Source: a virus. Taken from it: 64,000 bases of DNA. How positions within the stretch are numbered: position 1 is the stretch's first letter; each line of letters starts with the position of its first letter. Shown piece after piece: positions 12,645 through 59,920 of this stretch. The DNA lies in the IMG/VR virus record IMGVR_UViG_3300050821_010487, positions 1 to 64,000 of that record; one strand, written 5' to 3'. The notes under the pieces were generated by a model that had not been told where the DNA came from, made no database searches, and worked only from the letters and a program-made list of their open reading frames with translations. Both the position numbers and the translations under genes were made by a program.

Positions 12645-12692
12645 CCGCCCAGAATGTACGATTAGCAAGAAACCCGACTCTAGGAGGACGGC

Positions 12693-12848
12693 GTGGGCAT
12701 CCGCAAATACGGCACCGCCGACGGCGACGTGACCGGCGTCGAGCAGGACGGCATCACCCGGGAGGCGGCCAAGCCCGCCTGGGGCGAGGATGACGACCTT
12801 GAGCTGGCCGCCGAGAACGAGGCTGACAGGCTCCGGGGCGATGCCTGA
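12693..12848 (+). CDS. 51-aa acidic hypothetical protein (not in ORF track)
   Basis: AGGAGG RBS, GTG start, MGIRKYGTADGDVTGVEQ...; its stop overlaps the next ATG (ATGCCTGA). Confidence 0.7.
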   Translation: MGIRKYGTADGDVTGVEQDGITREAAKPAWGEDDDLELAAENEADRLRGDA

Positions 12849-36500: not shown

Positions 36501-38901
36501 CAAAGGCGAGATGGCTAACACCCCGCACGATCCGGTGCACGACGACTACGCCAACAGCCGGATGCGTGGGCAGATCACCCGGGGACAGGCGCGTCGCGGC
36601 TACTACTACACCAACATCGGCGAGGACGCGGGGTCGCTGTCGGCGGTGGTCCCGTCGGCGGAACACCTGGAGCGGATCGAGCACGAGCCGAAGACGGCTT
36701 CGGCTGAGCCCCAGCTCGAAGCGCACGACTACGAGGGCACCGCCGGCGACCCGGCCCACATCACCCGGAACGAGAGCGGTCTGCTGCCGGTGGATTCGGT
36801 CCGGGACCTGCACGGCGTCAACGGCGAGCAGCCCGGCCACTCGGACTGGCACCGCACCGGGCAGGAGTGGGAGGACTTCAAGGGCGCGGTCGCCCGCGGC
36901 GAGGGCGGCGCCGGGGAGCCCATCTTCATCACGGTGGACCACGGCCAGGAGCCGAAGATCAGCGAGGGCAACCAGCGCCGCGACGCTTACGTGGAGAACG
37001 GCGCGTCTCACGTGCCGGTGGAGGTCCGCTACTTCGGGCATGCCGAGCAGCAGGGCACCGTCCACGAGCGCGCGATGCGCCGGACCGCTGCCGTGGAGCC
37101 GTTCGATGAAGAGACCGGAGAGCCCCGGCCGTGGCATAAGCGCTGGGAAGGCGAAAGCGATCGGGAGACGTCCGACCGCCGCGAGCGGTATGTCCATCAG
37201 GTCGCTGAGCGTCACGGAGTAGGAGCCGAGGTAGCCAGGCACGCGATCACCCGGGTGGCGCAGGACGTCCGCACAGGCGAGCCTTTTACCGGTGTCCGTG
37301 GCTACGGCTACACCCGAAGCCCCGGCGACATGAACGACAGCTTCTACACCGAGCGCCGGATCAAGGCCCTCAACGATCCGGAGACGTGGCGCGGCCGGAA
37401 GGTTCAGCACGTCTCTACCGATGAGGTTCATGCCTCCCAGCCATGGCTGAACCCGCCCAAACTCGCCCACAACCTGTTCCACCCTGGCAAGGACCTCCCG
37501 GCAATGGAGGGGGAGACCGGTCACCCGGACATCGACCCGGATGAATCCTGGGAGGATGCCGGAGAGGAACGCCGCCACCAAGACTCGCTAGGCGCTACCA
37601 CCCGGTTCGTGCGCCGCTCCGACGGCCGCCTCCAGGTCGGCGACGGGCACCACAGGGCCGCGATCGACATGCTGCTCGGCAAGGAGACTACCCCGGGGCT
37701 GGTGATCAACGAGCACGAGCTGGATTCACCCCCGGTACGGCTGCACGGCGAGGAGATGACCGCTCCGGAGCTGCACGCCCACATGCTGGAGCACCACGAC
37801 CGCACCCGGTCCGAGCTGCCCGAGCCCAGGGATGCCAATCACCTGGACCTGGTGGACGAGCACGACCACAGCCACGAGTTCGATGACCCGAGCCACGTCC
37901 ACGCTGTCCGCAAGACCGCTTCAGGCTCCGACGGTGATGACTACTTCACCTGCGCGAAGGGCCACGAGCACTGGGGCGAGCACGGCGCCGCTGGCCTGCT
38001 GATCCGGCACCGGGACGACGACGGCCTCTACCGGTACCTGCTGCAGAAGCGGGGCCCGGACGGCACGGGCAAGGGCCAGGTTGACCACGGCGGGAAGTGG
38101 TCGATCCCGTCGGGGGCGATCGGCGAGGGCGAGGAGCCCCTGGATGGCGCCAAGCGGGAGTACCGCGAGGAGATGGGCTCGCTGCCCCAGGGCGTCACCC
38201 ACCACCACTCGGTGACCTCGACAAATTGCGGGGACTGGCGGTTCACCACCCACGTGATGGACGCCCCGGAGCGGTTCATGCCGCGCGGCCGGGGCGAGAC
38301 CGAGGACGAGGTGGCCGGGGCCGCCTGGCACACCGCCAAAGAGGTCCAGGGCCTCAAGGACCGCGGCGAGCTGCACCCGGCGTTCGCCAAGTCCTGGGAC
38401 GAGGTCCGGCGCTCGCGCGGCCAGAAGGAAGCCGTCAAGGGCTACGACCCGGAGCCCCGCACCGGCATGATCTACCTGGACGTCCCGCCTGAGCTGATCC
38501 ACCAGGTGCCAGGCGGGGTGAACGATTCCCACATCACACTGGTGTACCTCGGCAAGGGGCTGAGCGACGAGCAGTTCGGGGAGGCGTGCCGCCGCGCGGC
38601 CAAGGCAGCGGCCGGCGCCCAGCCCATGGAGGGCGTGCTGCGGGGCGTCGAGACCTTCCCGCCGAGCGACGGCAAGACCCCGGCGTTCGTCCCGGCCTAC
38701 ATCCCCGGGATCGGGGAACTGCGCCGCGGCCTGGAGGACCTGTCGGCGAGCGAGCACAAGGACTACCGTCCGCACCTCACGCTTGGATATCTGGAGCCCG
38801 GCGACGAGATGCCGCCGCCGCACCCGCCCGTCCACCTGCGGTTCACCCACCTGCACGTGAAGCGCGGCGACCAGGTGGTAGCTTTCCCCCTGGGTGGTTA
38901 G
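33523..38901 (+). CDS. Polyvalent protein 2 (~1792 aa): ART x3, GNAT, Pol-beta-type nucleotidyltransferase, ParB-like x2, NUDIX, 2H phosphoesterase
   Basis: GTGA coupling. Motifs: RGKGIG..LL...WY.RRGF; VGGSAS...DLDV; EGNQR and DGHHR; G.....E....A.RE..EE.G; HITL...HLTL. Confidence 0.87.
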   Translation: MSRQAEAAVTEPVYGGYAHQWDDYEDPEDNEDEYDTCYHCQRNHNPHEHAGDQTFSPDWHEELPKIPSIHRSVGVVLPDELDKKVHDPATPPHEAASALMHHLTTAYPYQGHTHWSAHQGLEHAEKTFGHAHPEGYHGPSSKITRVMMHAKTPRPDDIEYDNDSLIEDEISPYRHPEYEVPLHPNAPVHLTGVSWSRPQTGRWNEGGSKWHSDPAPAVHHHMFGKPFELTAALDRAAALKRATAAIEHEPTGDGAHWFEHFDSEGNSAGHAIVHERPDHTWVQSMTVNPGERGKGIGAGLLDHVQNHFGKPLRLKPYPIGEREDDPGEEQLRDWYGRRGFTDYERREGDDLDAHDWMERHAAGEILRNPHTQGREWYHGTKASSEQLAGGFRIADSDPDPDWPAHWSTGVGVHFAAHHSMASKFADPNIGVGGKGGAADPWHSTTPSVVHARLHITNPKVYPNEDRMADDVFEHEYDHRKNYISRYLDGGDKEGDKEAPYAASDYFSYDHHPSERPSRGEDEHFDDWEDHSEWGEEQPEPVYRREQWLNLHPDQAGIAKRYRERLQSEGHDGIVYGNSAPDERVRSSKPESNMAAIAFHPHQIEITKHHVHGDEHKTAARWEPSSGVFGPTTGHDPRLFENHELRPEVRRDLMERLDRALRVDTGLVGSDWQDWTRIYLVGGSASEWAGARPNDAAQDLDVVIGVNFFEARRHQSQSDAFQNMDSDQIATAFNSALRAAFNDPDWHPGFGGTWQLTAYVNPLAWDITAIKPYAAYDVSDMKWAVHPPHLPEHSVADFHPAILAIARAVATEVRAVLRLPEPARTREARALWERIHSDRSRAFSGEGEGWEDPGNLIEKYLAYAPGNILGQIKDLVWAQTKTADLQQQVKTAVATGVWYHGTPDDRNWEHGAANGLHIGTEEAARQALNARIGKPHEGEWDGTRPYGRTLLSPAQTTGVERNLTMPRYPSGRATYSDGKQVPADARPNIFPVRVKGEMANTPHDPVHDDYANSRMRGQITRGQARRGYYYTNIGEDAGSLSAVVPSAEHLERIEHEPKTASAEPQLEAHDYEGTAGDPAHITRNESGLLPVDSVRDLHGVNGEQPGHSDWHRTGQEWEDFKGAVARGEGGAGEPIFITVDHGQEPKISEGNQRRDAYVENGASHVPVEVRYFGHAEQQGTVHERAMRRTAAVEPFDEETGEPRPWHKRWEGESDRETSDRRERYVHQVAERHGVGAEVARHAITRVAQDVRTGEPFTGVRGYGYTRSPGDMNDSFYTERRIKALNDPETWRGRKVQHVSTDEVHASQPWLNPPKLAHNLFHPGKDLPAMEGETGHPDIDPDESWEDAGEERRHQDSLGATTRFVRRSDGRLQVGDGHHRAAIDMLLGKETTPGLVINEHELDSPPVRLHGEEMTAPELHAHMLEHHDRTRSELPEPRDANHLDLVDEHDHSHEFDDPSHVHAVRKTASGSDGDDYFTCAKGHEHWGEHGAAGLLIRHRDDDGLYRYLLQKRGPDGTGKGQVDHGGKWSIPSGAIGEGEEPLDGAKREYREEMGSLPQGVTHHHSVTSTNCGDWRFTTHVMDAPERFMPRGRGETEDEVAGAAWHTAKEVQGLKDRGELHPAFAKSWDEVRRSRGQKEAVKGYDPEPRTGMIYLDVPPELIHQVPGGVNDSHITLVYLGKGLSDEQFGEACRRAAKAAAGAQPMEGVLRGVETFPPSDGKTPAFVPAYIPGIGELRRGLEDLSASEHKDYRPHLTLGYLEPGDEMPPPHPPVHLRFTHLHVKRGDQVVAFPLGG

Positions 38902-39169
38902 CAAGCAAGGCTGTATCCAGGAGGAATGGGTGGAAAAGGCCGAATACCCCCAGCGGCAGTGCCGGCAGCCGGTCACTGAGGACGGCCTGATCGACCACTT
39001 CTGCGACGGCCCCGACCTGCACCCCGGGCCCTGCGCCCCGTCCACCTCGGAGGCCGCACTGAAGCGCCGTCAGGCCTGGGAGGACGCCCATCCGGGATGG
39101 GAGAAGCTGATGAGGCCCGCCGACCCGTTCGCCGAGATAGGCGCCACCGTCCCCGAGGAGCGCAAGTGA
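38894..39169 (+). CDS. Hypothetical Cys/His protein (true start probably GTG 38930)
   Basis: AGGAGG at ~38919; coupled to the next gene. Confidence 0.6.
   Translation: MVSKQGCIQEEWVEKAEYPQRQCRQPVTEDGLIDHFCDGPDLHPGPCAPSTSEAALKRRQAWEDAHPGWEKLMRPADPFAEIGATVPEERK
38898..38916 (-). promoter_or_regulatory. 19-bp box overlapping the stop codon of polyvalent protein 2
   Basis: TTAGCAAGCAAGGCTGTAT. Confidence 0.5.
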
Positions 39170-40551: not shown

Positions 40552-40659
40552 ATGCATCTCTTCGAGCAATGTGCCGGAATCTTCGCGGGGCTAGTTGTCG
40601 GCAGCGTCCTGGTCCTGTGGCTTCGCCACTTCTCCTGGTGGCCGAAGCCCCGAGGTTGA
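40552..40659 (+). CDS. 35-aa single-TM peptide (not in ORF track)
   Basis: RBS GAGAGGA; MHLFEQCAGIFAGLVVGSVLVLWLRHFSWWPKPRG. Confidence 0.55.
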   Translation: MHLFEQCAGIFAGLVVGSVLVLWLRHFSWWPKPRG

Positions 40660-40684
40660 CTAGCAAGGAAAGCTGTATTACCCT
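40656..40684 (+). promoter_or_regulatory. Promoter with 19-bp box
   Basis: TTGACT-N17-TACCCT; box CTAGCAAGGAAAGCTGTAT at 40660-40678. Confidence 0.7.
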
Positions 40685-40689
40685 TGCTC

Positions 40690-40807
40690 GTGGTGAGATT
40701 GGTCTGCGAGAGCCTCCGGCTCACCGGTTCCTTGCAAGCAGTGGCCCCGATGGTCCCTGCCGCGCCGGGTGCACCCGAGCCACAACGGGTGCACCCGGTT
40801 CGTCGTT
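40690..40807 (+). ncRNA. Predicted small RNA antisense to early-gene leaders
   Basis: Lies between a promoter and a terminator hairpin; contains GCCTCCGGCTCACCGGTTCCTTGCAAG, complementary to six - strand leaders. Confidence 0.5.
40765..40807 (+). terminator. Terminator-like hairpin
   Basis: 13-bp stem CCGGGTGCACCCG-N8-CGGGTGCACCCGG followed by TTCGTCGTT. Confidence 0.65.
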
Positions 40808-40821
40808 GAGAGGGGAGAGCG

Positions 40822-41448
40822 GTGGACAGCAAAGAAGCCAGGCTCCAGGACTTGTACCAGGGCTACGCGGAAACCGAGATCCTGCAGCAGGTCAGGCACC
40901 GGGACGGCAAGCCCAAGACCCTGGTCATGCCCAAGGGCCCTCTCGACTCCCCGCTGGCCATCGTCGGCGAGGCACCGGGCCGCGACGAGGAGCAGACCGG
41001 TGAGCCGTTCACCGGCAACGCCGGCCGGCTGCTGCAGGAGCTGTTCGCGGAGGCCATGATCCCGTGGCAGTTCTGTTACCGGGCCAACGTGCTCCCGTGG
41101 CGCCCGTCGCTCGCCAACCGCACCCCCTACCCGTTTGAGATCGACGCCTCCGTGCTCCGTGTCCAGGCTGAGATCGCGCTCGTAGGCCCGCAGATCGTGA
41201 TCGCGGCCGGGGCGGTCGCCTGGCAGGGGATCACCGCCCGGCAGATCATGCATTTCGCGGCTGCCCGCGGCCGGTGGGTCCGGAACTGGTCCCCCGGCTG
41301 GTACGCCCACTTCCAGTGTGACCTGCTCGCGATCTACCACCCGGCCGCCCTGCTGCACGCCCCGGCGACCAGGCGCAGCGAGATGCGGGCCGAGACCGTG
41401 GCCGCCCTGCGCAGCGTCCTGGCAGGCGAGCGTGTCGCAGCCGCCTGA
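40822..41448 (+). CDS. Uracil-DNA glycosylase, family-4-like
   Basis: IVGEAPG..E...GEPF.G.AG.LL, N...RP..NRTP, YHPAALL. Confidence 0.88.
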   Translation: MDSKEARLQDLYQGYAETEILQQVRHRDGKPKTLVMPKGPLDSPLAIVGEAPGRDEEQTGEPFTGNAGRLLQELFAEAMIPWQFCYRANVLPWRPSLANRTPYPFEIDASVLRVQAEIALVGPQIVIAAGAVAWQGITARQIMHFAAARGRWVRNWSPGWYAHFQCDLLAIYHPAALLHAPATRRSEMRAETVAALRSVLAGERVAAA

Positions 41449-47270: not shown

Positions 47271-47537
47271 TCAGCCTCCGGGGGGTTGATCTTTGGGGAA
47301 CCGGAACCCGCCCCAGCATGAGCAGCCGACGGACGGGTCAGAACAGTCGTGGGCATTGCGCAGCCAGCCGGCGAAGTTGGCCAGGTTCACCCGGGGCGAG
47401 TAATGCCGGCTCACGCCAGGGCCCGAAGGAGAGCGCCACGGCTTGCGCCAGAAGAGGTCGAGCACAGGCCCGTGCCAGCGGCGCATCCGCCGCTGCATCA
47501 CGTGGATCACTTCGTCGTTACGGGTTTTGTACGGCAT
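47271..47537 (-). CDS. Hypothetical protein
   Basis: AAGGAG RBS before MPYKTR. Confidence 0.5.
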   Translation of the reverse strand: MPYKTRNDEVIHVMQRRMRRWHGPVLDLFWRKPWRSPSGPGVSRHYSPRVNLANFAGWLRNAHDCSDPSVGCSCWGGFRFPKDQPPGG

Positions 47538-48483
47538 GTCCCGGGTCTCCTTCCAGTGCATGCTTGATCTCGCGGCCGAAAGCCCGTGCGACGGGCGGCG
47601 GGAAGGCGTTGCCGATCTGCCGGTAGGCGGCCGTCTTGGTGCCTGAGAACCACCAGTCATCGGGGAAGCCCTGCAGCCGCGCGACCATGCGGAGCGTCAG
47701 CCGGGGGAGGTGGTCAGCGGGCTCGTCCGGGCCGGGGGCCAGCTCGGCGATCGAGCCGCCGTTGACGTGCAGCTCCCGCCATGCCGCCCTGGCCCGGGTC
47801 GGGCCGAGGTCGGGGCCGCCGTGCTTCTTGCTGCCGCCCACGATGGTGGGTGCGACTTTGTTGCAGAGTAGCGACCAGTGATGCGCCCACGGCCATCCGT
47901 TCTCTGCCATCAGGTCGTACAGCGCTTCCCCCGCGGTGGCGCCGGGGACGATGGTGTAGGGCCAGTGGAACCGTTGGCACCACGGTGCGCGCAGCGCCAC
48001 CAGGACCAGGCGCGGCCGGAGCTGGGGAACGCCGAAGGTGCAGGCGTTGATGCCCTGCCACCAGCTCTGGGCGTAACCCAGTTTCCAGAGCCGCTCCGCC
48101 ACCTGCCAGCGGTAGCCGGCGAACTTCTTCTGGCCGAGGCCCATGACGTTCTCCAGCAGCACCGCGCGGGGCTGGGCTTCCTCGATGATCCGCAGCGCCT
48201 CAGGGAACAGGTCGCGCTCGTCGGCGTGCCCGAGCTGCTTGCTGCCGACGGAGAACGGCTGGCACGGGACACCCCCGGCGACCAGGTCCACGCCGCGGAA
48301 CTGGCGGCCGTCGAGGTTGCGGATGTCGTCCTCGATGATTTTCGTGCCGCAGAGGTTGGTGCGCAGTGTGATGCAGGCGTCGGAGTCGATCTCGGCTAGC
48401 GCCACGTGCCGGAACCCGGCCTGGTCGAGTCCGAGCGCCTGGCCGCCGCCTCCCGCGCAGATCTCCACGGCTGTGAGGCTCAT
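47518..48483 (-). CDS. DNA (cytosine-5) methyltransferase, NaeI/NgoMIV-like
   Basis: EICAGGGG, GGVPCQPFS, ENV, PQ.RPR, TRD TIVGGSKKHGGPDLGPTRA, RQIGNA. Confidence 0.93.
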   Translation of the reverse strand: MSLTAVEICAGGGGQALGLDQAGFRHVALAEIDSDACITLRTNLCGTKIIEDDIRNLDGRQFRGVDLVAGGVPCQPFSVGSKQLGHADERDLFPEALRIIEEAQPRAVLLENVMGLGQKKFAGYRWQVAERLWKLGYAQSWWQGINACTFGVPQLRPRLVLVALRAPWCQRFHWPYTIVPGATAGEALYDLMAENGWPWAHHWSLLCNKVAPTIVGGSKKHGGPDLGPTRARAAWRELHVNGGSIAELAPGPDEPADHLPRLTLRMVARLQGFPDDWWFSGTKTAAYRQIGNAFPPPVARAFGREIKHALEGDPGHAVQNP

Positions 48484-49964: not shown

Positions 49965-50625
49965 GCGGTGCCGCCAGGGGGGAGGAGGTGAAGTGGGTCA
50001 GAACGGTGCGCCGGCTGTAGGACTCGGCGCAGGAGGTGCACACCAGGGCGGTCTCCTGGGGGTCCTGGTTGCGGTAGTTGTAGCTGATCTTGCGGGTGGC
50101 CGGGGTGTGGCTGTGGCCGACGGTGTCGCACCGCTTCTGCTGCGGCAGCCGCATGCTCTTGAGCAGCGCGGCCATGGTGAACTCGGCCGGGCCGATGTGG
50201 AGGCCGCTGTCGAGGTCCGGGTCGGATGAGGTGAACGCGACGTCGGTGACGCCCTGCTTCGACAGCTTGCGGATGTTCGACCAGCCGCCGTGCAGCTTGA
50301 CGTCCACCCAGCCGCGGCCGGTGATGAACACCTGGGCGATGCGGACCTTGTGGTGACCGAAGTATTCGCGTACGGCCGGGGCGGTCGCCTCGTAGATGGG
50401 AACCGCGGTCACGTCCTGGGCGCCGTATCCCCAGCGGTTGGCGTAGGTGATGGCGCGGGAGCGGACCGAGTCGTAGGAGTTGCCGTGCGCCAGCTCGGCC
50501 CACTGGCCCTTGCTGTTGCGCGCGATCCCGGCCACGCCCCACTTGTTCGGCGGGGAGGTGTAGGTGATCTCGGTGCCGTCGGGGGCGTACGCCGCTCCCC
50601 TGACCGTCTTGGTGGTGCTGGCCAT
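49945..50625 (-). CDS. Hypothetical early protein (MASTTK...)
   Basis: First gene after a cassette promoter; RBS AGGAGG. Confidence 0.7.
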   Translation of the reverse strand: MASTTKTVRGAAYAPDGTEITYTSPPNKWGVAGIARNSKGQWAELAHGNSYDSVRSRAITYANRWGYGAQDVTAVPIYEATAPAVREYFGHHKVRIAQVFITGRGWVDVKLHGGWSNIRKLSKQGVTDVAFTSSDPDLDSGLHIGPAEFTMAALLKSMRLPQQKRCDTVGHSHTPATRKISYNYRNQDPQETALVCTSCAESYSRRTVLTHFTSSPLAAPHEDLHV

Positions 50626-50629
50626 CTGG

Positions 50630-50691
50630 TCCTCCTGGCTGCCGGTTTCCTTGCTAAGAGGAACATTACAGCTTTTCTTGCTAACGCGCAA
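50630..50691 (-). promoter_or_regulatory. Promoter-box-leader-RBS repeat unit
   Basis: TTGCGC-N17-TAATGT; box at 50666-50684; leader TTAGCAAGGAAACCGG...AGGAGG. Confidence 0.85.
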
Positions 50692-52365: not shown

Positions 52366-53229
52366 TTACTTGAAGTAGGCGAGCTGCTTGCGCTCGGCGT
52401 TGCGCTGGATCTTGTCGATCTCTGCCTGGGTGGCTCCGGTGCCGGGGTTGGCGGCCTCACGGGCCAGCAGGACGGCCTTGGCCTGCTCGGCTGCCACAAG
52501 GGTGGTCTCGTACCAGCAGTGGTGGTCGTTGGGGCCGCTGTAGTGCTTGAACTCCATCGCCTCGCGGAGGACCTCCTTGCAGCGGTACACGGTCTCGACC
52601 CAGTCGCCCCGGCCCCCGCGGCCGATGCGGCCGTCGGTGAAGCGCTGCTCGGGGGTGAGGGTCTTGGCGGCCTTCTTGGCGTCGCGCTCGGCCTTGGCAG
52701 CGTCACGTGCGCCCTTGGTCTTGTCGCGCTCGACCTGGCCGAGAGTCTTGCTGCGGTGCTCGACCGGGGCGCTGGGGAAGCAGACGCTGCACAGCGCCGG
52801 GCCCAGCTCGGCGACCGCGTCCTCGGCGGTCTTGCCGGACAGGTTCGGGTACCAACCCATCGGGGTGGTGGCGTAGACGGTGGAGCAGCCGCGCAGCGAG
52901 CTGTGGATGTGCCCGTCGGCATTGCGGCAGGGGAAGAAGCGGGTCCAGCGCTGCTCGCGGTAGATCTCCTCCATGGCGCCGATCTGCTCGCCGATGCGCT
53001 TGAAGGCGCGCTTGGCCTGGTCGTACTCGACTCGGGCAATCGGGCTGGACTTCTCGTAGGCCACGCTGGGCGCCATCCCCCAGGGGTGGTTGCGCTGGCA
53101 GTAGTCGCGCTTGTCGCCGGCGTCGTGGTGGACCTGGTCGGCTTTGTAGCGGAGAGTCCGCTCGGCCTTGGCCAGCTCATCGAACAGAGCGGCTTCGGCT
53201 TCGTCGTGGGCCTTGGGGCTGATGGTCAC
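52366..53229 (-). CDS. Hypothetical early phage protein
   Basis: First gene of a cassette; WTRFF...GHIHSS..GCST...LCSVCFPSAP. Confidence 0.75.
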   Translation of the reverse strand: MTISPKAHDEAEAALFDELAKAERTLRYKADQVHHDAGDKRDYCQRNHPWGMAPSVAYEKSSPIARVEYDQAKRAFKRIGEQIGAMEEIYREQRWTRFFPCRNADGHIHSSLRGCSTVYATTPMGWYPNLSGKTAEDAVAELGPALCSVCFPSAPVEHRSKTLGQVERDKTKGARDAAKAERDAKKAAKTLTPEQRFTDGRIGRGGRGDWVETVYRCKEVLREAMEFKHYSGPNDHHCWYETTLVAAEQAKAVLLAREAANPGTGATQAEIDKIQRNAERKQLAYFK

Positions 53230-53232
53230 TGT

Positions 53233-53291
53233 GCCTCCCTGGTTCGGTTCCTTGCAGAACCAACATTACAGGGTTTCTTGCTAACGGTCAA
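53233..53291 (-). promoter_or_regulatory. Promoter-box-leader-RBS repeat unit
   Basis: TTGACC-N17-TAATGT; box at 53266-53284; leader TGCAAGGAACCGAACCAGGGAGGC. Confidence 0.88.
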
Positions 53292-54103: not shown

Positions 54104-54495
54104 CAGATGTCCATCGGGTAGTGCTGCGGGCCCGCGCACAGTTCGAGCGCCATCTGGTGCTCGCACAGCTTGCCGCTGAACTCCATGGCGCCGATCCCGC
54201 CGTCCCAGGTGCCGCCCGAGGCGACCACCGCGGCGTAGCGCCCGGCGTCCTCGGGGCTGCCGCCGCCGGCGACCCAGGACATGACCCCTTCGGCGTAGAT
54301 CTCGTCGGCCTGCTGAGAGGCCAGCTCCTCGCTCACCTCGTAGCAGGCGCGGACCGCGGCGGGGTTCTCGTGCCGGACGCGGACTTCGAACCGCGGGTGG
54401 TTGCCGCACAGGATGCCGTGCGGGGCGGTGTCCTCGGGGAGCCCGAAGCTGCCGGAGTTGTAGCCCTCTGCCTCGCGGACCAGGTCTTGTGTCAT
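54103..54495 (-). CDS. Hypothetical protein
   Basis: First gene of a cassette; C-terminal CEH.M..ELC.GP.HYP. Confidence 0.7.
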   Translation of the reverse strand: MTQDLVREAEGYNSGSFGLPEDTAPHGILCGNHPRFEVRVRHENPAAVRACYEVSEELASQQADEIYAEGVMSWVAGGGSPEDAGRYAAVVASGGTWDGGIGAMEFSGKLCEHQMALELCAGPQHYPMDI

Positions 54496-54502
54496 GTTCG
54501 CT

Positions 54503-54562
54503 GCCTCCCTGTAGCCGTCCCTTGCAAGACAGAACATTACAGGGTTTCTTGCTAATGCGCAA
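54503..54562 (-). promoter_or_regulatory. Promoter-box-leader-RBS repeat unit
   Basis: TTGCGC-N17-TAATGT; box at 54537-54555; leader CTTGCAAGGGACGG...GGGAGGC. Confidence 0.88.
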
Positions 54563-56970
54563 CCTGGACGTTATGCGGGTGGGCGTTGAGGTAGGCTCCG
54601 GCTTCCTTCTGCCAGTAGGGGTGCACCAGCACCGACGGGCCCAGGAGTGAGCCGAAGGCGGGCAGGCCGCAGACGCAGCGCTGGCCGCCCCACCAGCCGT
54701 TCTCCGCCAGCGCCTCAGCCGGCGCAGGTGTGATCTCGTTTGCAGGTGCGGTCTCGTTCATTGCCTGGTTCTCTCCTGGGCGGTGATCGTGAGCAAGTTG
54801 ACGGCGTGCTGGAGCTGCCCGGCAAGTGTCTGCGCTGCCCTCTCGTTCCCGGTGCAGGCGCGGGCGACTGCGAGCAGCAGGGGGAAGCAGTCGGTCTCCG
54901 CGTTCGCTGCCGCCAGGATGGCCGACTTCATTATCGAGATCTTCCGGTCGGTGAAGCCGCCGAGCTGCCAGTGGGCGAGGACCTCGTCGTGGAGGATTTC
55001 GTCCAGGGTGGCCGGTGCGGTCATTGCCGGCACTTCCCCTCGTGGCCCTCGGCCAACGCACGGCCCGGCTTGCACGTGACGCACCGGTTGTAGAGCGGGA
55101 TGCCGGCGGTGTCCTCGTGCTGGTCCAGGTTGGTGGCGGCGGCTTTCCACTCGTCGTCCAGGGCCTGCAACTGCTGTCGTAGTTCTGCCCGCCTCACCGC
55201 GTAGGTGGAGGAGATGGCGTTGTAGCGGTCGCAGGCCTTCTCGTAAGCCTCTTCGCTGGTCGCGGCGATCTGCGCGCGGCGCGTCTCAGTCATGCCGACG
55301 GCCCCCGCTGCGCGAGCAGTTCTTCGGTGACCTTCTGCGCGAGGATGTGCGAGTCGAACGCCGCGAACACGGCGACACGCACCTCGGGCGGCGCGTCCAT
55401 GTCGCCGCCGAACCGCTGCCAGAACGACAGCGCCAGGCGGATCAGCTCGTCAAGCTGGTCGCTGCCGTAGGGGACCGCGAACCGGATGAACCGCTTGGTC
55501 TCGTAGGTCACCTCGATCGAGCGCTTGCGGTAGACCAGGCCGCGCTTTCCCGCTACCAGGTTGTTCACCCGCAGCCCGCTGGCCTTGGCCCACGGGTCCC
55601 AGGCGTTGCGGCGGACGCCCTCATCGAGCTGGTGGAAGCCGAACCTGATGGTGATCATGGCGTGTCCTCGGGAGTGAGGTAGTAGCGGACGGCGCCAACA
55701 CGGGTGTCGGCCTGGATGTAGCCCTCGGTGCGCAGCATTGCTGCCCACGCCTGGGTGTCGTTGGAGTTGGCCGGCAAGCCGTGGTCAGTGAGATACCAGG
55801 CCAGGTCTGCCAGCCCTATGGCGCCGCCTGGGGCGTTGTTGTTGACCGGCAGAAGCGCCTGGATGATGAGCGCCTGGCCATCCCGGGCCCTGTCCACGTG
55901 GCGCTGGTCGTACGGGGTCATGACGCCTCCTGAGCGGGCAGGTAGCGCTTGGCGGCGGCGCCGAGCAGATCCGCGACCGCGTCGGTGCGGCGCCTGCGGC
56001 TCCTGGTCCGGTGCCCGGTGATGGGCCCTGCTGACCAGCTCTGGCACGAGGGGAGGCTGCCGAACCGCTCCACGGTGCCGATGTAGTGCCACGTGCCGCC
56101 CGTCTGGGTCTGTACCTCGACGCGGTAGCTGCGCCGGGTCGTGCCACGGCCGTTCGGGATGACGCGGTGGTTGACGATCTCGGTGTTCATCTCGTGGCCT
56201 CCCTGATCGCCTGGCGCTTGCGGTTGGCGCGGCCGGTGCGGCCAGGCCGCACGTCGGGCCGGCGGGCACGGGCCCGGAGCGCCATGATCTCGGCGCCCCG
56301 CTTGCCCTTGCTCCTCTTCACGGTGCTCACTCCCCCAGCGCTGATGCGATGGCGTCCATGGCGGTCTCGGCGCTGACCAGGCCGCGCCGGTAGTTGCCGG
56401 CCAGCTCACGCACCAGGGCGGTGTAGCTGCCGGCCAGGAACTCGTCCCGCAGCCGCATGGCCTCGTCGTAGTGGTCCTGCTCGCTGTACCGGACGTGACT
56501 GCCGGCTCGCGCATCCCGTACGAGCACGGCCAGCTCCGCGGTCGCTTGGTCGATCTGGTGGTTGCCGGTGACCTTGACCCCGCGGGTACCCATCTGGTCT
56601 GTCATCGTGCTCACTCCCCGAACGGTCCGTTTTCGAAGCAGGATGCGCGGTAGGCGACTTCGCCCAGGTTCTCGGCGTAGACGCCGGTCACCTCGCCGTG
56701 CAGGTAGGCCCGGAAGCCCTTGATCCGGATGCGGCGGACGGTGTACTCGTCGTTCCACTGCAGGTCGATCGTGACCTTGTAGCCGTGGCCGACGGGAAGG
56801 ATGACGCCGTGGTCGTTGTAGAACATCCGGCCGCCCGAGATCGCCAGGAAGTTCATCCGGCCGAGCTGCTGCATGAGCAGGCCGATGTCGCAGCGGTCAC
56901 TGAACCGGCGCTTGTCCTCGGCGAGGAATGACTCGTCCATCTCGCGGGGCGTGGTCTGCGTGATGGTCAT
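54552..56970 (-). other. Operon of nine small coupled hypothetical genes: 56611-56970, 56327-56614, 56187-56330, 55918-56190, 55655-55921, 55290-55658, 55021-55293, 54758-55024, 54552-54761
   Basis: Chain of ATGA/GTGA start-stop overlaps. 56187-56330 is a 47-aa Arg-rich ORF missing from the track. Confidence 0.7.
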
Positions 56971-56975
56971 CTGGT

Positions 56976-57033
56976 GCCTCCCTGGCTCGGTTCCTTGCGA
57001 GTCCTACGTTACAGGGTTTCTTGCTAATGTCAA
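56976..57033 (-). promoter_or_regulatory. Promoter-box-leader-RBS repeat unit
   Basis: TTGACA-N16-TAACGT; box at 57009-57027; leader GCAAGGAACCGAGCCAGGGAGGC. Confidence 0.88.
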
Positions 57034-57056
57034 TCTAGCAAGAGGCACCGACAGAA

Positions 57057-59041
57057 CTACTCCGTGGTGAGGTCCAGGAGCGGGACTTCGCGGGGAGGCC
57101 GCTTGGCCACGCCGTCGTCACAGCGCAAGATCCGCAGCCCCTCAGGCAGCAGCGGCTGGCCTCTCCGCAGCAGGTGCAGCCATGTGACCAGCTCGTGCTT
57201 GACGGTGAAGGCCGCGGGGTCCTCGCCTGGCCTGGTCACGATGAAGATGGTCCGGGCGCGTGCCATCAGAGCCGCTCCTGCAGCGGCACCCCGGCAGCGG
57301 CCTGGAGTACCGAGTAGGCCAGGTGGCGCTGCCACTCCTCGACGGTGCTGCCCTCGAACCTGCGGCACGAGCAAGCGACAAAGTCGCCCAGCACACCTGG
57401 AACGCCGAGCACGCCACGCGGCCTGTGGTGGCTCACCTCGTCGGCTGCACGCCTGAGGCCGTCGTCGCCGAGGATCTCCCCCGAGCGGTCCTCCCGGCCG
57501 CCCTCGTAGGCACGCCGGAGCGCCTGGAGGGCATCCTCGGGCGAGTCCAGCTTGTACCCGGGGCCCAGCCACAGCACGGGCGTGGGCGGGGCGTCAGGCG
57601 CGGTCCGCTCGCGGATCTCGTAGCCGAGCTGCCCGCGGGGCAGCATGGCGAGTTTGTAGGTGCGCTGGGTCATCGCCATTCACTCCAGCCCTGCCGCCTT
57701 GTAGACCTGCTCGATGATGTCCCGTGCGTCGTCACGCTCCACGCTGATGCTGATGCCTGCTTTGAACACCAGCGACTCGATGTCCTCCAGCAGGTCGGCG
57801 CGGATGTTCTCATCCAGCGAGTCGAACGCCTTCAGCAGCTTCACCCGGCGTGCTGCGGATGCCTCCCGGTTGTTCGGGTTCATGGCCAGGCACGAGGGGC
57901 GCCCGGCGTCCCTGGATGGCTTCATCATGTTTGCTCTCCCGTTTCCATCGCGCTGTCGTAGATCAGTTTGTCCAGGGCGTCCAGCAGGCCGCGCAGGCTG
58001 CCGCGCTGCTCAGGCGTGAACAGCCCCCAGGCGGCCGGTGTGGCCTCGTCGCGCAGGATCTTGAGCATGTCCAGGGACTCGCCCCGGTGGGTGTCTATGA
58101 CCAGTTGGTAGCGCTTGACGTAAGCCCGGTCGTAGCCATGGCGCAGCGCCGGGTGGATCTCATGGACTGATCCACCCGGCTGCTCGGCTGGCTGGCTGGT
58201 CACTAGATTTCGTCCATGTCAGTGTTCCTCGTCTTCTACCAGCGTCAGGCTGTAAACCTTGTAGGCCGGGACCTTGAGGCCCTCGTTGCGCCTGGCCGCG
58301 AACGCCTTAGCTCCCTCGACGGTGAATGCCAGGCCGTCCTCGGCATTACGGAAGACATAGCCGCAGGAAGTGTCTACGGCTACCGCGTCAGGCACCGCGA
58401 CGAGGCGGCGGGTCGCGGGGTCGGGTTCGGGGATGACGAACGTCTTGCGCGGGTACTGGGCCAGGGTCCTCCAGGCGCGCACCGTGAGTCCGCGGGCGGT
58501 CTTCTCGCGGTCGATGCGGCGGCCGTGCTCGTCCAGGACGTGGACCTGGCCGCGGGCGATCAGGAGGACGCCGTAGTCCCGCCAGCCGTGGCAGATGCGG
58601 GCGCCGTTGCTGCGGTACAGCCAGCCGCCCGCGCGGCCGGTCACGCCGTGCGCCTTGCCGAAAGCCTTGGCGGCTGCTTCGAGGTTCTTGTACGTGGCCA
58701 TGTCAGGCACCCTTCCTCGTGAGCGTGGCGACCGCGGCGGCGAAGTGGGAGACGATCTCGGGGCGCTTGGTGACGGCCCAGGTGGGGCGGCCGATCGTGA
58801 TGCTGTCGGCGCCCTCGGTGGTGACGGTCCAGCCGTACCACTTGCCCATCCGGCCGTACTTGTCGCGGACGTCCACGCAGCCGAGGAACTCACCGGCAGC
58901 GTCGCGCACCTGGTAGGCGATCGAGTAGGTGTCCGGCCCGCCACTGAGGACCTGGCCGCGGGGGTTGGTGCTGACCTTGACGTTGAATCCCGCCGCCTTG
59001 AGTTCTTCCGCGAGTCGGCCCCAGCCTGCCTCTGATGCCAT
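57057..59041 (-). other. Operon of six small hypothetical genes: 58703-59041, 58219-58701, 57925-58203, 57680-57928, 57266-57679, 57057-57266
   Basis: Abutting or coupled ORFs downstream of the 59.1-kb promoter. Confidence 0.7.
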
Positions 59042-59047
59042 TCCCGT

Positions 59048-59107
59048 GCCTCCTGTCGTCCGGTCCCTTGCAAGACCAACATTACAGGGTTTCTTGCTAA
59101 CGCACAA
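59048..59107 (-). promoter_or_regulatory. Promoter-box-leader-RBS repeat unit
   Basis: TTGTGC-N17-TAATGT; box at 59082-59100; leader CTTGCAAGGGACCGG...AGGAGGC. Confidence 0.88.
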
Positions 59108-59149: not shown

Positions 59150-59872
59150 TCAGGCGGCCGGGACGACCTCGAAGTCCATTTCGCGCCAGTCACGGATGTT
59201 GTAGCGGCCGTAGCCTGGCACCCCGAACGTGTTGCCCTTGATGAAGTCGAACTCGGCCCACTTGGTGCCGTCGGTGAACTCGATCGCCCGGGGGAACTTC
59301 ACCGTGGTGCCCGGGGTCACCGTACGGGCCAGTGCCACGCGCTCCAGCCGCTGGCGGCAGGCGGTGCGCCACTCGCGCGCCGACTCGTTCGAGCAGTAGC
59401 CGTGGCCGCCTGGCACGTGGAACGGTGCGCTGCCGTCGGCCTGGCGGGCGCTCTCGGGGAAGTGGTAGCAGTGCGGGCCGGTGCACTCGCTGCGCACCTT
59501 CCCGGGGTCAGCTTCGTACACCCACTGGCCATCGCGCACGGTCAGCTCCTGGTTGCAGAGCTGGCAGTAGGTCTCGTCGTGGTGGCACTCGGGGATCGGC
59601 GAGAGCAGGTCCAGGACCTGAGCCGAGGCGCCGAAGTCACCGGGGCCGCACTCTTCGCTGCACGCCTTGTAGGTGAAGTTGAAGTACCCCCGGCTGCGCC
59701 AGGTCAGCGTGACAAGCGCTTCCACGTTGCCGGTGCGGTTGTCGCGTACCGCGGCGTAGTGGGTGGTGCCGGTCATGTTGCTGGCGATGATCGTGTAGTG
59801 CTCGTCCAGCTCGCCCTGCATGACCTGGGTGGTCGTCTGGCCGGGCTCCCGGTGGAAACTCGTTGCGCCCAC
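59150..59872 (-). CDS. Hypothetical protein (DUF6927-like, found in mobile elements)
   Basis: YAAVR...ALV.L......F.YK...E..GP......VLDLLSP...AREWR..C. Confidence 0.65.
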   Translation of the reverse strand: MGATSFHREPGQTTTQVMQGELDEHYTIIASNMTGTTHYAAVRDNRTGNVEALVTLTWRSRGYFNFTYKACSEECGPGDFGASAQVLDLLSPIPECHHDETYCQLCNQELTVRDGQWVYEADPGKVRSECTGPHCYHFPESARQADGSAPFHVPGGHGYCSNESAREWRTACRQRLERVALARTVTPGTTVKFPRAIEFTDGTKWAEFDFIKGNTFGVPGYGRYNIRDWREMDFEVVPAA

Positions 59873-59877
59873 TGTCT

Positions 59878-59920
59878 GCCTCCTCTGTGGTTCGGTCCCT
59901 TAGCAAGAAACATTGTAACA
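59878..59920 (-). promoter_or_regulatory. Variant unit: extended -10 with box in the opposite orientation
   Basis: TG-T-TACAAT on the - strand; box TTAGCAAGAAACATTGTAA at 59900-59918; leader AAGGGACCGAACC...GGAGGC. Confidence 0.7.

Follow-up and report, generated by a model that had tools for sequence, protein, structure and literature searches.

A candidate trans-acting antisense RNA matched to the common leader of phage gene cassettes

The locus, its promoter and its relatives

The window, meaning the whole stretch of DNA that was analysed (64,000 nt), consists of bases 1-64000 of an 82,335-bp IMG/VR viral contig (record IMGVR_UViG_3300050821_010487; 68% GC) which CheckV estimates to be about half complete. 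At positions 40691..40808 of its + strand, folding and a covariance model outline a predicted RNA of ~115 nt, and from the sequence evidence described below it is proposed, with moderate confidence, that this locus encodes a trans-acting antisense "anti-leader" RNA directed at the leaders of a set of gene cassettes in the same genome. The ends of the RNA were inferred from the -10 element of its promoter (5' end, ~40690-40693) and from the tail of a terminal hairpin (3' end, ~40803-40808). An earlier sequence-only reading of this DNA had described here a + strand promoter TTGACT-N17-TACCCT with a box in its spacer, ~115 nt with no convincing gene and a 13-bp hairpin with a T-rich tail, and had taken the product for a small RNA antisense to the leader and ribosome binding site (RBS) of six cassettes; the promoter, the lack of a gene and the hairpin were all recovered, the U tail of the latter being imperfect.

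The promoter of the RNA (40656..40684, +) is composed of a -35 element TTGACT (40656-40661), a 17-nt spacer and a -10 element TACCCT (40679-40684), the latter satisfying only the actinobacterial TAnnnT rule. Its spacer contains TAGCAAGGAAAGCTGTA (40661-40677, +), a copy of a genome-wide 17-bp box (TAGCAAGRAANNCTGTA) of which 15 exact copies were counted in the contig versus 0 for a reversed-pattern control. Since promoter spacers hold the box in either orientation, it is interpreted as a DNA-level operator. The layout TTG(A/T)C-TAGCAAG..CTGTATTAnnCT is present in 13 homologues of the locus, in which the final CT of the -10 is invariant even though it lay outside the search pattern, and a 14th homologue, recovered by a promoter-free search, likewise carries a box promoter. 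The -35 of the RNA promoter is 3 nt nearer to the box than in the cassette promoters, and in the G005 lineage (L045-L053), G006 and G007, where the general box is TATCAAGAAAAGCTGTA (TATCAAG), the promoter of the anti-leader RNA retains TAGCAAG. Because of this closer -35 and of the deviating box variant in the G005 lineage, the RNA promoter may respond differently to the box-binding factor than most other box promoters.

Some further observations concern the surroundings of this promoter and other occurrences of the box. A 35-codon open reading frame (ORF; 40552-40659, +) with a good RBS, which would encode the hydrophobic peptide MHLFEQCAGIFAGLVVGSVLVLWLRHFSWWPKPRG, has its TGA stop within the -35 of the RNA promoter. 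At 12662-12695 (+) a partial box (TAGCAAGAAACCC) is directly followed by CTAGGAGGACGGCGTG, so that box-like sequence is found there as the leader of a + strand gene and not as a promoter spacer. At 38899-38915 (+) a box copy (TAGCAAGCAAGGCTGTA) is located at the end of a 1799-amino-acid (aa) ORF, 2 nt ahead of the following gene's RBS and with no recognisable -35, a placement reminiscent of a stoperator.

The genes from ~2 to 46.8 kb are on the + strand and include a primase/D5 helicase, a Pol III alpha subunit, two giant ORFs and a uracil-DNA glycosylase (UDG), while from 47.5 kb on the gene direction is that of the - strand. The UDG gene, of family-4 type (40822..41448, +; GTG start; Pfam PF03167, 4.4e-26), begins 14 nt past the tail of the terminal hairpin and has no promoter of its own. 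In the homologues, the RBS of a co-directional gene likewise follows 10-20 nt after this hairpin (stem-loop 3, SL3); the gene is usually a UDG, differs in L079, L081 and L083, and in G001 is preceded by an extra gene. Because the gene that follows differs in some copies, the RNA is considered a module of its own.

Near-identity and protein searches among deposited phages and viral contigs revealed no close relatives, and relatives were recovered only when viral and metagenome contigs were scanned for box copies and for the promoter pattern of the locus. The family thus assembled consists of high-GC soil phages of roughly 160 kb, three of which are complete (162-165 kb, with terminal repeats), whose UDG proteins share 48-53% identity with that of the window and whose host lineage is probably high-GC and actinobacterial. 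The anti-leader locus has 14 homologues in total, as a single copy per genome. Thirteen distinct copies were collected and aligned, whereas the 14th came from a tighter pattern with no promoter in the query; with a loose pattern, also independent of the promoter, more than 117 stretches were obtained, and none of the 80 loci fetched among them fit the covariance model. This model (R1), itself built without the promoter, gave exactly one strong match in each of six genomes. The possibility of a second, paralogous RNA in these genomes was discarded, the only other matches being weak and located at box-plus-terminator sites. Two scans of isolate genomes and metagenome-assembled genomes gave 0 matches in the first case and, in the second, 9 chance matches in unrelated low-GC genomes.

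Fold and conservation of the RNA

The predicted RNA has a minimum free energy (MFE) of -59.5 kcal/mol (z = -3.0) and folds on both sides of an unpaired seed. Stem-loop 1 (SL1; 40691..40726, +; GGUGAG...CUCACC) holds an anti-Shine-Dalgarno (anti-SD) sequence, GCCUCC (40712-40717), together with the lineage-specific extension CACCGG. A hairpin at this position is present in the MFE fold of all 13 homologues, in sequences that are unrelated, and the reverse-complemented leaders can be aligned with the 3' arm of SL1 and with the anti-SD. The anti-leader stretch as a whole, GCCTCC-GGCTCA-CCGGTTCCTTGCAAG (40712-40738, +; GCCTCC at 40712-40717 and CCGGTTCCTTGCAAG at 40724-40738), is found where the sequence-only reading had placed it.

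The seed, UUCCUUGCA (40728..40736, +), is single-stranded and complements the 8-9 nt with which the cassette mRNAs are predicted to begin (GCAAGGRA). Of its nine positions in the 13 aligned sequences, five never vary and four are at least 90% conserved, compared with a mean column identity of 59% for the whole alignment; the exceptions are one inserted U in G003 and a U to A change in L081, and the consensus across copies is (U/A)UCCUU(U)GCA, unpaired. The probability of the seed being unpaired was 0.86 in the window and 0.57-0.96 in the homologues, versus ~0.3 for the rest of the RNA. The lowest value (0.57) is that of G003, whose copy (L073:5798-5926, -; G003 ~47,500-47,640) has a sense leader start, CUUGCAAGGAACC, directly after the promoter in addition to the antisense seed with its extra U; since both are in the same copy, the G003 RNA could pair with itself.

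Stem-loop 2 (SL2; 40738..40760, +) carries a conserved loop, C(C/A)GAUG, in which bases G65, A66 and G68 are invariant, and its stem has 90% of alignment cells paired with two of four pairs changed on both sides. Stem-loop 3 (40761..40807, +) is formed by a perfect, GC-rich 13-bp stem (40765-40777/40786-40798) closed by an 8-nt loop and followed by the tail UUCGUCGUU, the hairpin tail reading TTCGTCGTT in the window, which is an imperfect U tail. Across the homologues this hairpin has 13-17 bp, is likewise rich in GC and ends in an imperfect U tail; 92.7% of its cells are paired, and in 12 of its 16 pairs both partners have changed. SL3 is probably a leaky intrinsic terminator.

When SL2 and SL3 are taken together, 92% of cells are paired versus 79% in shuffles and 33-50% with the partners slid, and changes of both partners are seen in 14 of 20 pairs versus 7.5 +/- 1.5 in shuffles, none of the 500 shuffles reaching the observed values. 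The structure alignment contains ~27 G-U cells and 4 A-C cells and, because the former far outnumber the latter, the + strand is identified as the folded strand. From these covariation data it is our judgement, rather than a computed value, that the locus is very probably a functional, conserved + strand RNA element. No Rfam family reached threshold for the window or for six homologous loci.

Coding explanations of the conservation were considered and rejected. A small protein gene is incompatible with lengths varying between 108 and 136 nt, with indels whose size is not divisible by three and with stops that vary by frame, and no reading frame or peptide is conserved in the homologues. A leader peptide starting at the ATG of the SL2 loop was discarded as well, neither frames nor peptides being conserved and the triplet being ACG in G003. 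This loop (window 40745-40752; alignment A1 columns 77-84) is conserved in the 13 aligned homologues, reading CAGACG in G003, and it is similar to the bases from -3 to +3 around the start codons of the cassettes, with no conserved ORF starting there.

Cassette leaders and their complementarity to the RNA

On the - strand, the cassettes are arranged in the order -35, box, -10 (TAATGT), 7-8 nt, GCAAGGRA, ~10 nt, GGAGG, 4-8 nt and start codon. Each genome of the family has 5-9 cassettes with a leader starting GCAAGGRA 6-10 nt after the -10, regardless of the orientation of the box, and the leader motif is retained on orthologous genes at 40-65% aa identity. In the 82 kb of the contig GCAAGGRA occurs 18 times, eight of the occurrences sitting 6-10 nt after a cassette -10 and one being the antisense copy.

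Over its 5' half the RNA can be aligned with the reverse-complemented leader in full, to within a few nt of the start codon; this alignment takes in the seed, a middle segment, the anti-SD and, in several instances, bases immediately ahead of the start codon. As an example from G005, 17 contiguous pairs are followed by the SD and then by CCUGA beside the AUG. In ungapped register, the pairing potential amounts to 92-100% at +1 to +6 of the predicted mRNA and to 0.2-0.76 upstream of +1. Since pairing falls off upstream of the predicted +1, the complementarity is bounded by RNA landmarks, namely the predicted mRNA 5' end and the start codon. Moreover, as the RNA gene is 10-35 kb away from its putative targets, the complementarity must be maintained by selection.

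The middle segment of the leader differs between lineages (CCGR in G000, UCGACAGCC in G001, ACGACG in G003 and CGAGCGCU in G005) and is tracked by the RNA. The 14 nt located 5' of the seed form a mean of 5.4 pairs with leaders of their own lineage versus 3.0 with foreign leaders (Mann-Whitney p = 6e-12), and the true assignment of RNAs to leader lineages ranks 1 of 24 permutations; covariation between RNA and leaders in related phages, which the sequence-only reading had proposed as a check, is thus observed. The anti-SD also depends on lineage, being CCUCC in G000, G003 and L220, CUUCC (with one G-U pair) in the G005 group and missing in G001. Consequently, the earlier claim that the RNA is antisense to both the leader and the RBS is retained for the leader, on the grounds of 14 homologues, covarying stems, an accessible seed and complementarity throughout the 5' untranslated region (5' UTR), and is not retained in general for the RBS, the conserved core being the 5'-end seed while the anti-SD varies.

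Targets were ranked by cofold ddG, which includes the self-structure of the RNA, over all translation-initiation regions (TIRs). This procedure was used instead of duplex scans, of which those with the whole RNA were swamped by GC-rich noise and self-matches and those with short queries were moderately discriminating. The leaders were at or near the top of the predicted targets in four genomes, with ranks of 1, 2, 5, 6 and 10 of 79 TIRs in the contig of the window, 1, 2, 3, 5 and 8 of 159 in G001, and 1, 3 and 6 of 154 in G003.

The best predicted target in the window is the cassette at 56968..57034 (-; -10 TAACGT, leader GCAAGGAACCGAGCCAGGGAGGC, ATG 56970), with a ddG of -26.5 kcal/mol (rank 1/79), whose orthologues in G002 and G003 (56-65% aa identity) have retained the leader. 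It is followed by the cassettes at 50623..50691 (-; leader GCAAGGAAACCGGCAGCCAGGAGG, ATG 50625; ddG -20.6, rank 2/79) and 59039..59107 (-; leader GCAAGGGACCGGACGACAGGAGGC, ATG 59041; ddG -16.6, rank 5/79), the leader of the latter forming 15 contiguous pairs with the seed region, including one G-U (59060-59074), exactly as had been described earlier. Two others, at 53227..53291 (-; leader GCAAGGAACCGAACCAGGGAGGC, GTG 53229; rank 18, 21 or 48 of 79) and 54493..54562 (-; leader GCAAGGGACGGCTACAGGGAGGC, ATG 54495), are among the leaders of lower cofold rank. All six - strand leaders named by the sequence-only reading were found in place, although the sixth (59878), belonging to a cassette at 59870..59920 (-; leader-like GCTAAGGGACCGAACCACAGAGGAGGC, GTG 59872; ddG -14.9, rank 8/79), is regarded as atypical because it overlaps a reversed box. 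Three further cassettes of the same type are encoded on the + strand outside the window (contig 65866, 71610 and 75736). Searches of PHROGs and Pfam assigned no function to the cassette genes; the protein of the best predicted target (56611-56970, -) has 119 aa and a LAISGGR motif.

Alternative readings, possible mechanism and known systems

Several observations weigh against an antisense function in trans. A scan with the E. coli consensus misses the RNA promoter, and an E. coli-type terminator scan does not call SL3, because its U tail is weak. The anti-SD is not universal and, in the window, is mostly buried in SL1. Three of the eight leaders in the contig rank only 18, 21 and 48 of 79; the ranking is, in addition, partly circular, because the leaders were defined via the complement of the seed. 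Whole-genome duplex scans rank the cassettes high but not clearly apart from background, given the noise at 68% GC. G-U and A-C mismatches in the RNA-leader alignments number 34 versus 20, a modest bias in counts that are not independent. Within a genome, co-variation of the motif copies is equally expected for a DNA site of a co-evolving protein. Finally, the RNA may also, or mainly, be the 5' UTR of the downstream gene.

A role as 5' leader is suggested by the co-directional gene that directly follows the hairpin without a promoter of its own, and a cis-acting leader of the downstream operon was therefore weighed as an explanation of the entire element. It would be an attenuator or a nut/put-like antitermination site where a factor loads and polymerase reads through SL3, the complementarity to the cassette leaders being secondary. 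All homologues place the element between promoter and strong hairpin, 10-20 nt ahead of a promoterless co-directional gene, in a layout which recalls lambda pR-nutR-tR1 and which resembles lambda nut and HK022 put as a promoter-proximal RNA element before a terminator hairpin; such a role would also account for the conserved SL2 loop C(C/A)GAUG, otherwise unexplained. On the other hand, it leaves unexplained the ~25-30 nt of complementarity to a whole 5' UTR, its boundary at +1 and its co-variation with lineage, and the downstream gene is not conserved. Attenuation is further disfavoured by the MFE and ensemble folds of the 13 homologues, in which SL3 is formed and the seed is unpaired; since neither arm of SL3 is complementary to the seed, there is no sign of a competing antiterminator pairing. 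Rfam gave no match to a cis-regulatory family. As a complete account the cis-acting leader is possible but unlikely. The two roles may nevertheless be compatible, a terminated small RNA acting in trans and the same sequence serving as the 5' UTR of read-through transcripts.

The co-variation by lineage would equally be produced by the sites of a co-evolving protein, and the conserved motif was accordingly considered as a DNA-level site, in which a phage regulator binds double-stranded GCAAGGRA and its flank at the cassette +1 as a roadblock or second operator, a single inverted copy being located in the intergenic region of the RNA locus and the RNA hairpins being an ordinary terminator and stabiliser. 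The position is typical of repressor binding, the left half of the box (TAGCAAGRAA) is similar to the leader motif (TTGCAAGGRA), and some copies have a palindromic CTTGCAAG. What is conserved lacks this symmetry, however: the RNA gene keeps TTCC and not the AAG half that would complete the palindrome, and CTTGCAAG was consequently rejected as the conserved unit. The leader motif was also rejected as a half-site of the box, since in G005 the latter became TATCAAG while leader motif and seed were unchanged. In addition, the leader homology takes in the Shine-Dalgarno and start-adjacent bases and stops at the predicted +1, which are landmarks of RNA, and in 14/14 homologues the inverted copy occupies the sole unpaired stretch between covarying stems. 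A DNA-level site is thus judged improbable.

That the locus is the functionless remnant of a decayed, inverted seventh cassette is hardly credible: it does show the full leader layout in reverse and, as noted in the sequence-only reading, its - strand has neither a box upstream nor a start codon after GGAGGC, but it is kept in 14 homologues whose UDG is only ~50% identical, with a nine-base core that is invariant or nearly so, a mean column identity of 59% speaks against recent horizontal copying, and the conservation, the absence in all homologues of a reversed box and -10 (covarying hairpins being found instead) and the tracking of own-lineage leaders rather than drift together exclude a neutral remnant.

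Under the antisense explanation, which is preferred here, the RNA would be transcribed from the box promoter with a start near 40691, and its seed would pair with the cassette mRNAs at their very 5' end (GCAAGGRA at +1). Pairing would then extend through the middle segment of the leader, which is specific to the lineage, into SL1 and over the Shine-Dalgarno, the most likely outcome being that ribosome binding is blocked or the duplex cleaved on 5-9 transcription units together, and SL3 would terminate part of the transcripts while the remainder read through into the next gene, the UDG in the window. Pairing at the extreme 5' end could also stabilise the mRNAs instead of repressing them. The 'early' nature of the cassette genes and a role of the RNA as timer or immunity factor are conjecture. 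Only tentatively can the RNA be seen as the specificity determinant of an immunity or timing switch that would place all standard-leader units of a ~160-kb phage (possibly a phage-plasmid) under post-transcriptional control, with an extension that would define heteroimmunity groups as in the c4 RNAs of P1 and P7 but regulon-wide; a like arrangement, in which several sense leaders face one antisense copy presented in an RNA loop, may also explain the start-associated sequences (SAS) of Cluster K1 mycobacteriophages.

Several phage systems offer partial parallels. P4 CI is a small stable phage RNA that pairs with repeated complementary sequences in early transcripts and causes premature transcription termination in one operon, being processed from that same transcript. 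The anti-leader RNA is similar as a small phage RNA that would regulate by pairing with repeated sequences, but since many separate leaders are covered by its complementarity from +1 to the SD, an effect on translation or stability is indicated, unlike in P4 CI. T4 RegB, a protein endoribonuclease recognising GGAG, reportedly shuts off many early mRNAs through a shared feature of their TIRs and would be a functional analogue, the agent proposed here being instead an RNA that recognises a ~25-nt leader.

The c4 RNA comes from the start of an operon whose later genes lie on the same strand, acts on one target within its own transcript, and differs between P1 and P7 in co-variation with this target, resembling in this last respect the lineage-specific matching of the anti-leader RNA. 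It is a 77-nt structured RNA of the P1/P7 immI operon whose exposed bases pair around an RBS and block phage protein synthesis (PMC12197685). The anti-leader RNA shares with c4 the design of a structured phage RNA with exposed bases complementary to a translation-initiation region; it differs by having 5-9 predicted targets, in unlinked transcription units on both strands, and by the high-GC, probably actinobacterial host lineage of its phages. A downstream target of c4 type was not found, there being no sense leader motif at a + strand gene start downstream of the RNA, and the sense copy of G003 is upstream, inside the RNA itself. Homology to c4 was not indicated by the Rfam search of the window and six loci, for which the presence of a c4 model in Rfam was not checked.

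P22 sar, lambda OOP and aQ are transcribed opposite their single target, which makes complementarity automatic, whereas the anti-leader RNA gene is distant (10-35 kb) from its predicted targets. All three are short phage RNAs that repress phage genes via base pairing (PMC12197685). Compared with described phage antisense RNAs, the anti-leader RNA differs in addressing, if it acts, many unlinked units through a standardised leader, in its unrelated sequence and in its occurrence in large high-GC phages. Most known regulatory RNAs of phages come from enterobacterial phages, and as a rule they control a single gene, in many cases from the strand opposite to it. No phage small RNA with a Streptomyces-type host is listed in a 2025 review of the subject, in which the phrase 'early gene' does not occur (PMC12197685). 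If the antisense explanation is true, one RNA would be matched to the modular leader of many phage transcription units and co-evolve with it across large uncultured soil phages, which would give phages a concrete reason to standardise their 5' UTRs; the 14 natural variants with matching leaders then constitute ready-made sets of compensatory mutations.

A similar explanation is suggested for the SAS/ESAS of Cluster K actinophages, for which culture and RNA-seq exist (PMC11373665). There, a standard promoter and leader/RBS unit heads 13-19 non-structural genes, in a role still called unknown (PMC3203893, PMC11373665). The likeness resides in many sense leader units accompanied by one reversed copy, the K1 members carrying one reversed SAS each, and the difference in the SAS being located at the RBS and not at +1. 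Within two mismatches, the 13-bp SAS GGGATAGGAGCCC (3-9 bp before starts) has its sole match in the window at 38127-38139, inside a giant ORF and not ahead of any start codon, with 2.9 matches expected by chance; in sequence, SAS and anti-leader system are unrelated.

In Mycobacterium phage Adephagia (JF704105, ~58,560-58,760; L222:33560-33760), the single reversed SAS reads CCUCCUAUCC on the + strand and caps a long hairpin (z = -6.6) as its 10-nt apical loop; the hairpin is situated in a non-coding gap of 430 nt and is preceded by an invariant TAGACT. Phrank, Shandong1 and Amgine have a CUCCCUUCCCC-like loop with the SAS unchanged, and Pixie is without the loop; co-variation of the loop with the SAS was looked for and not found. 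Because the loop differs in other subclusters while the SAS does not, the Cluster K case is weaker than that of the anti-leader RNA, and the Adephagia hairpin may, as a lead only, be an 'anti-SAS' RNA. The region of the reversed SAS is conserved in 182 Cluster K records.

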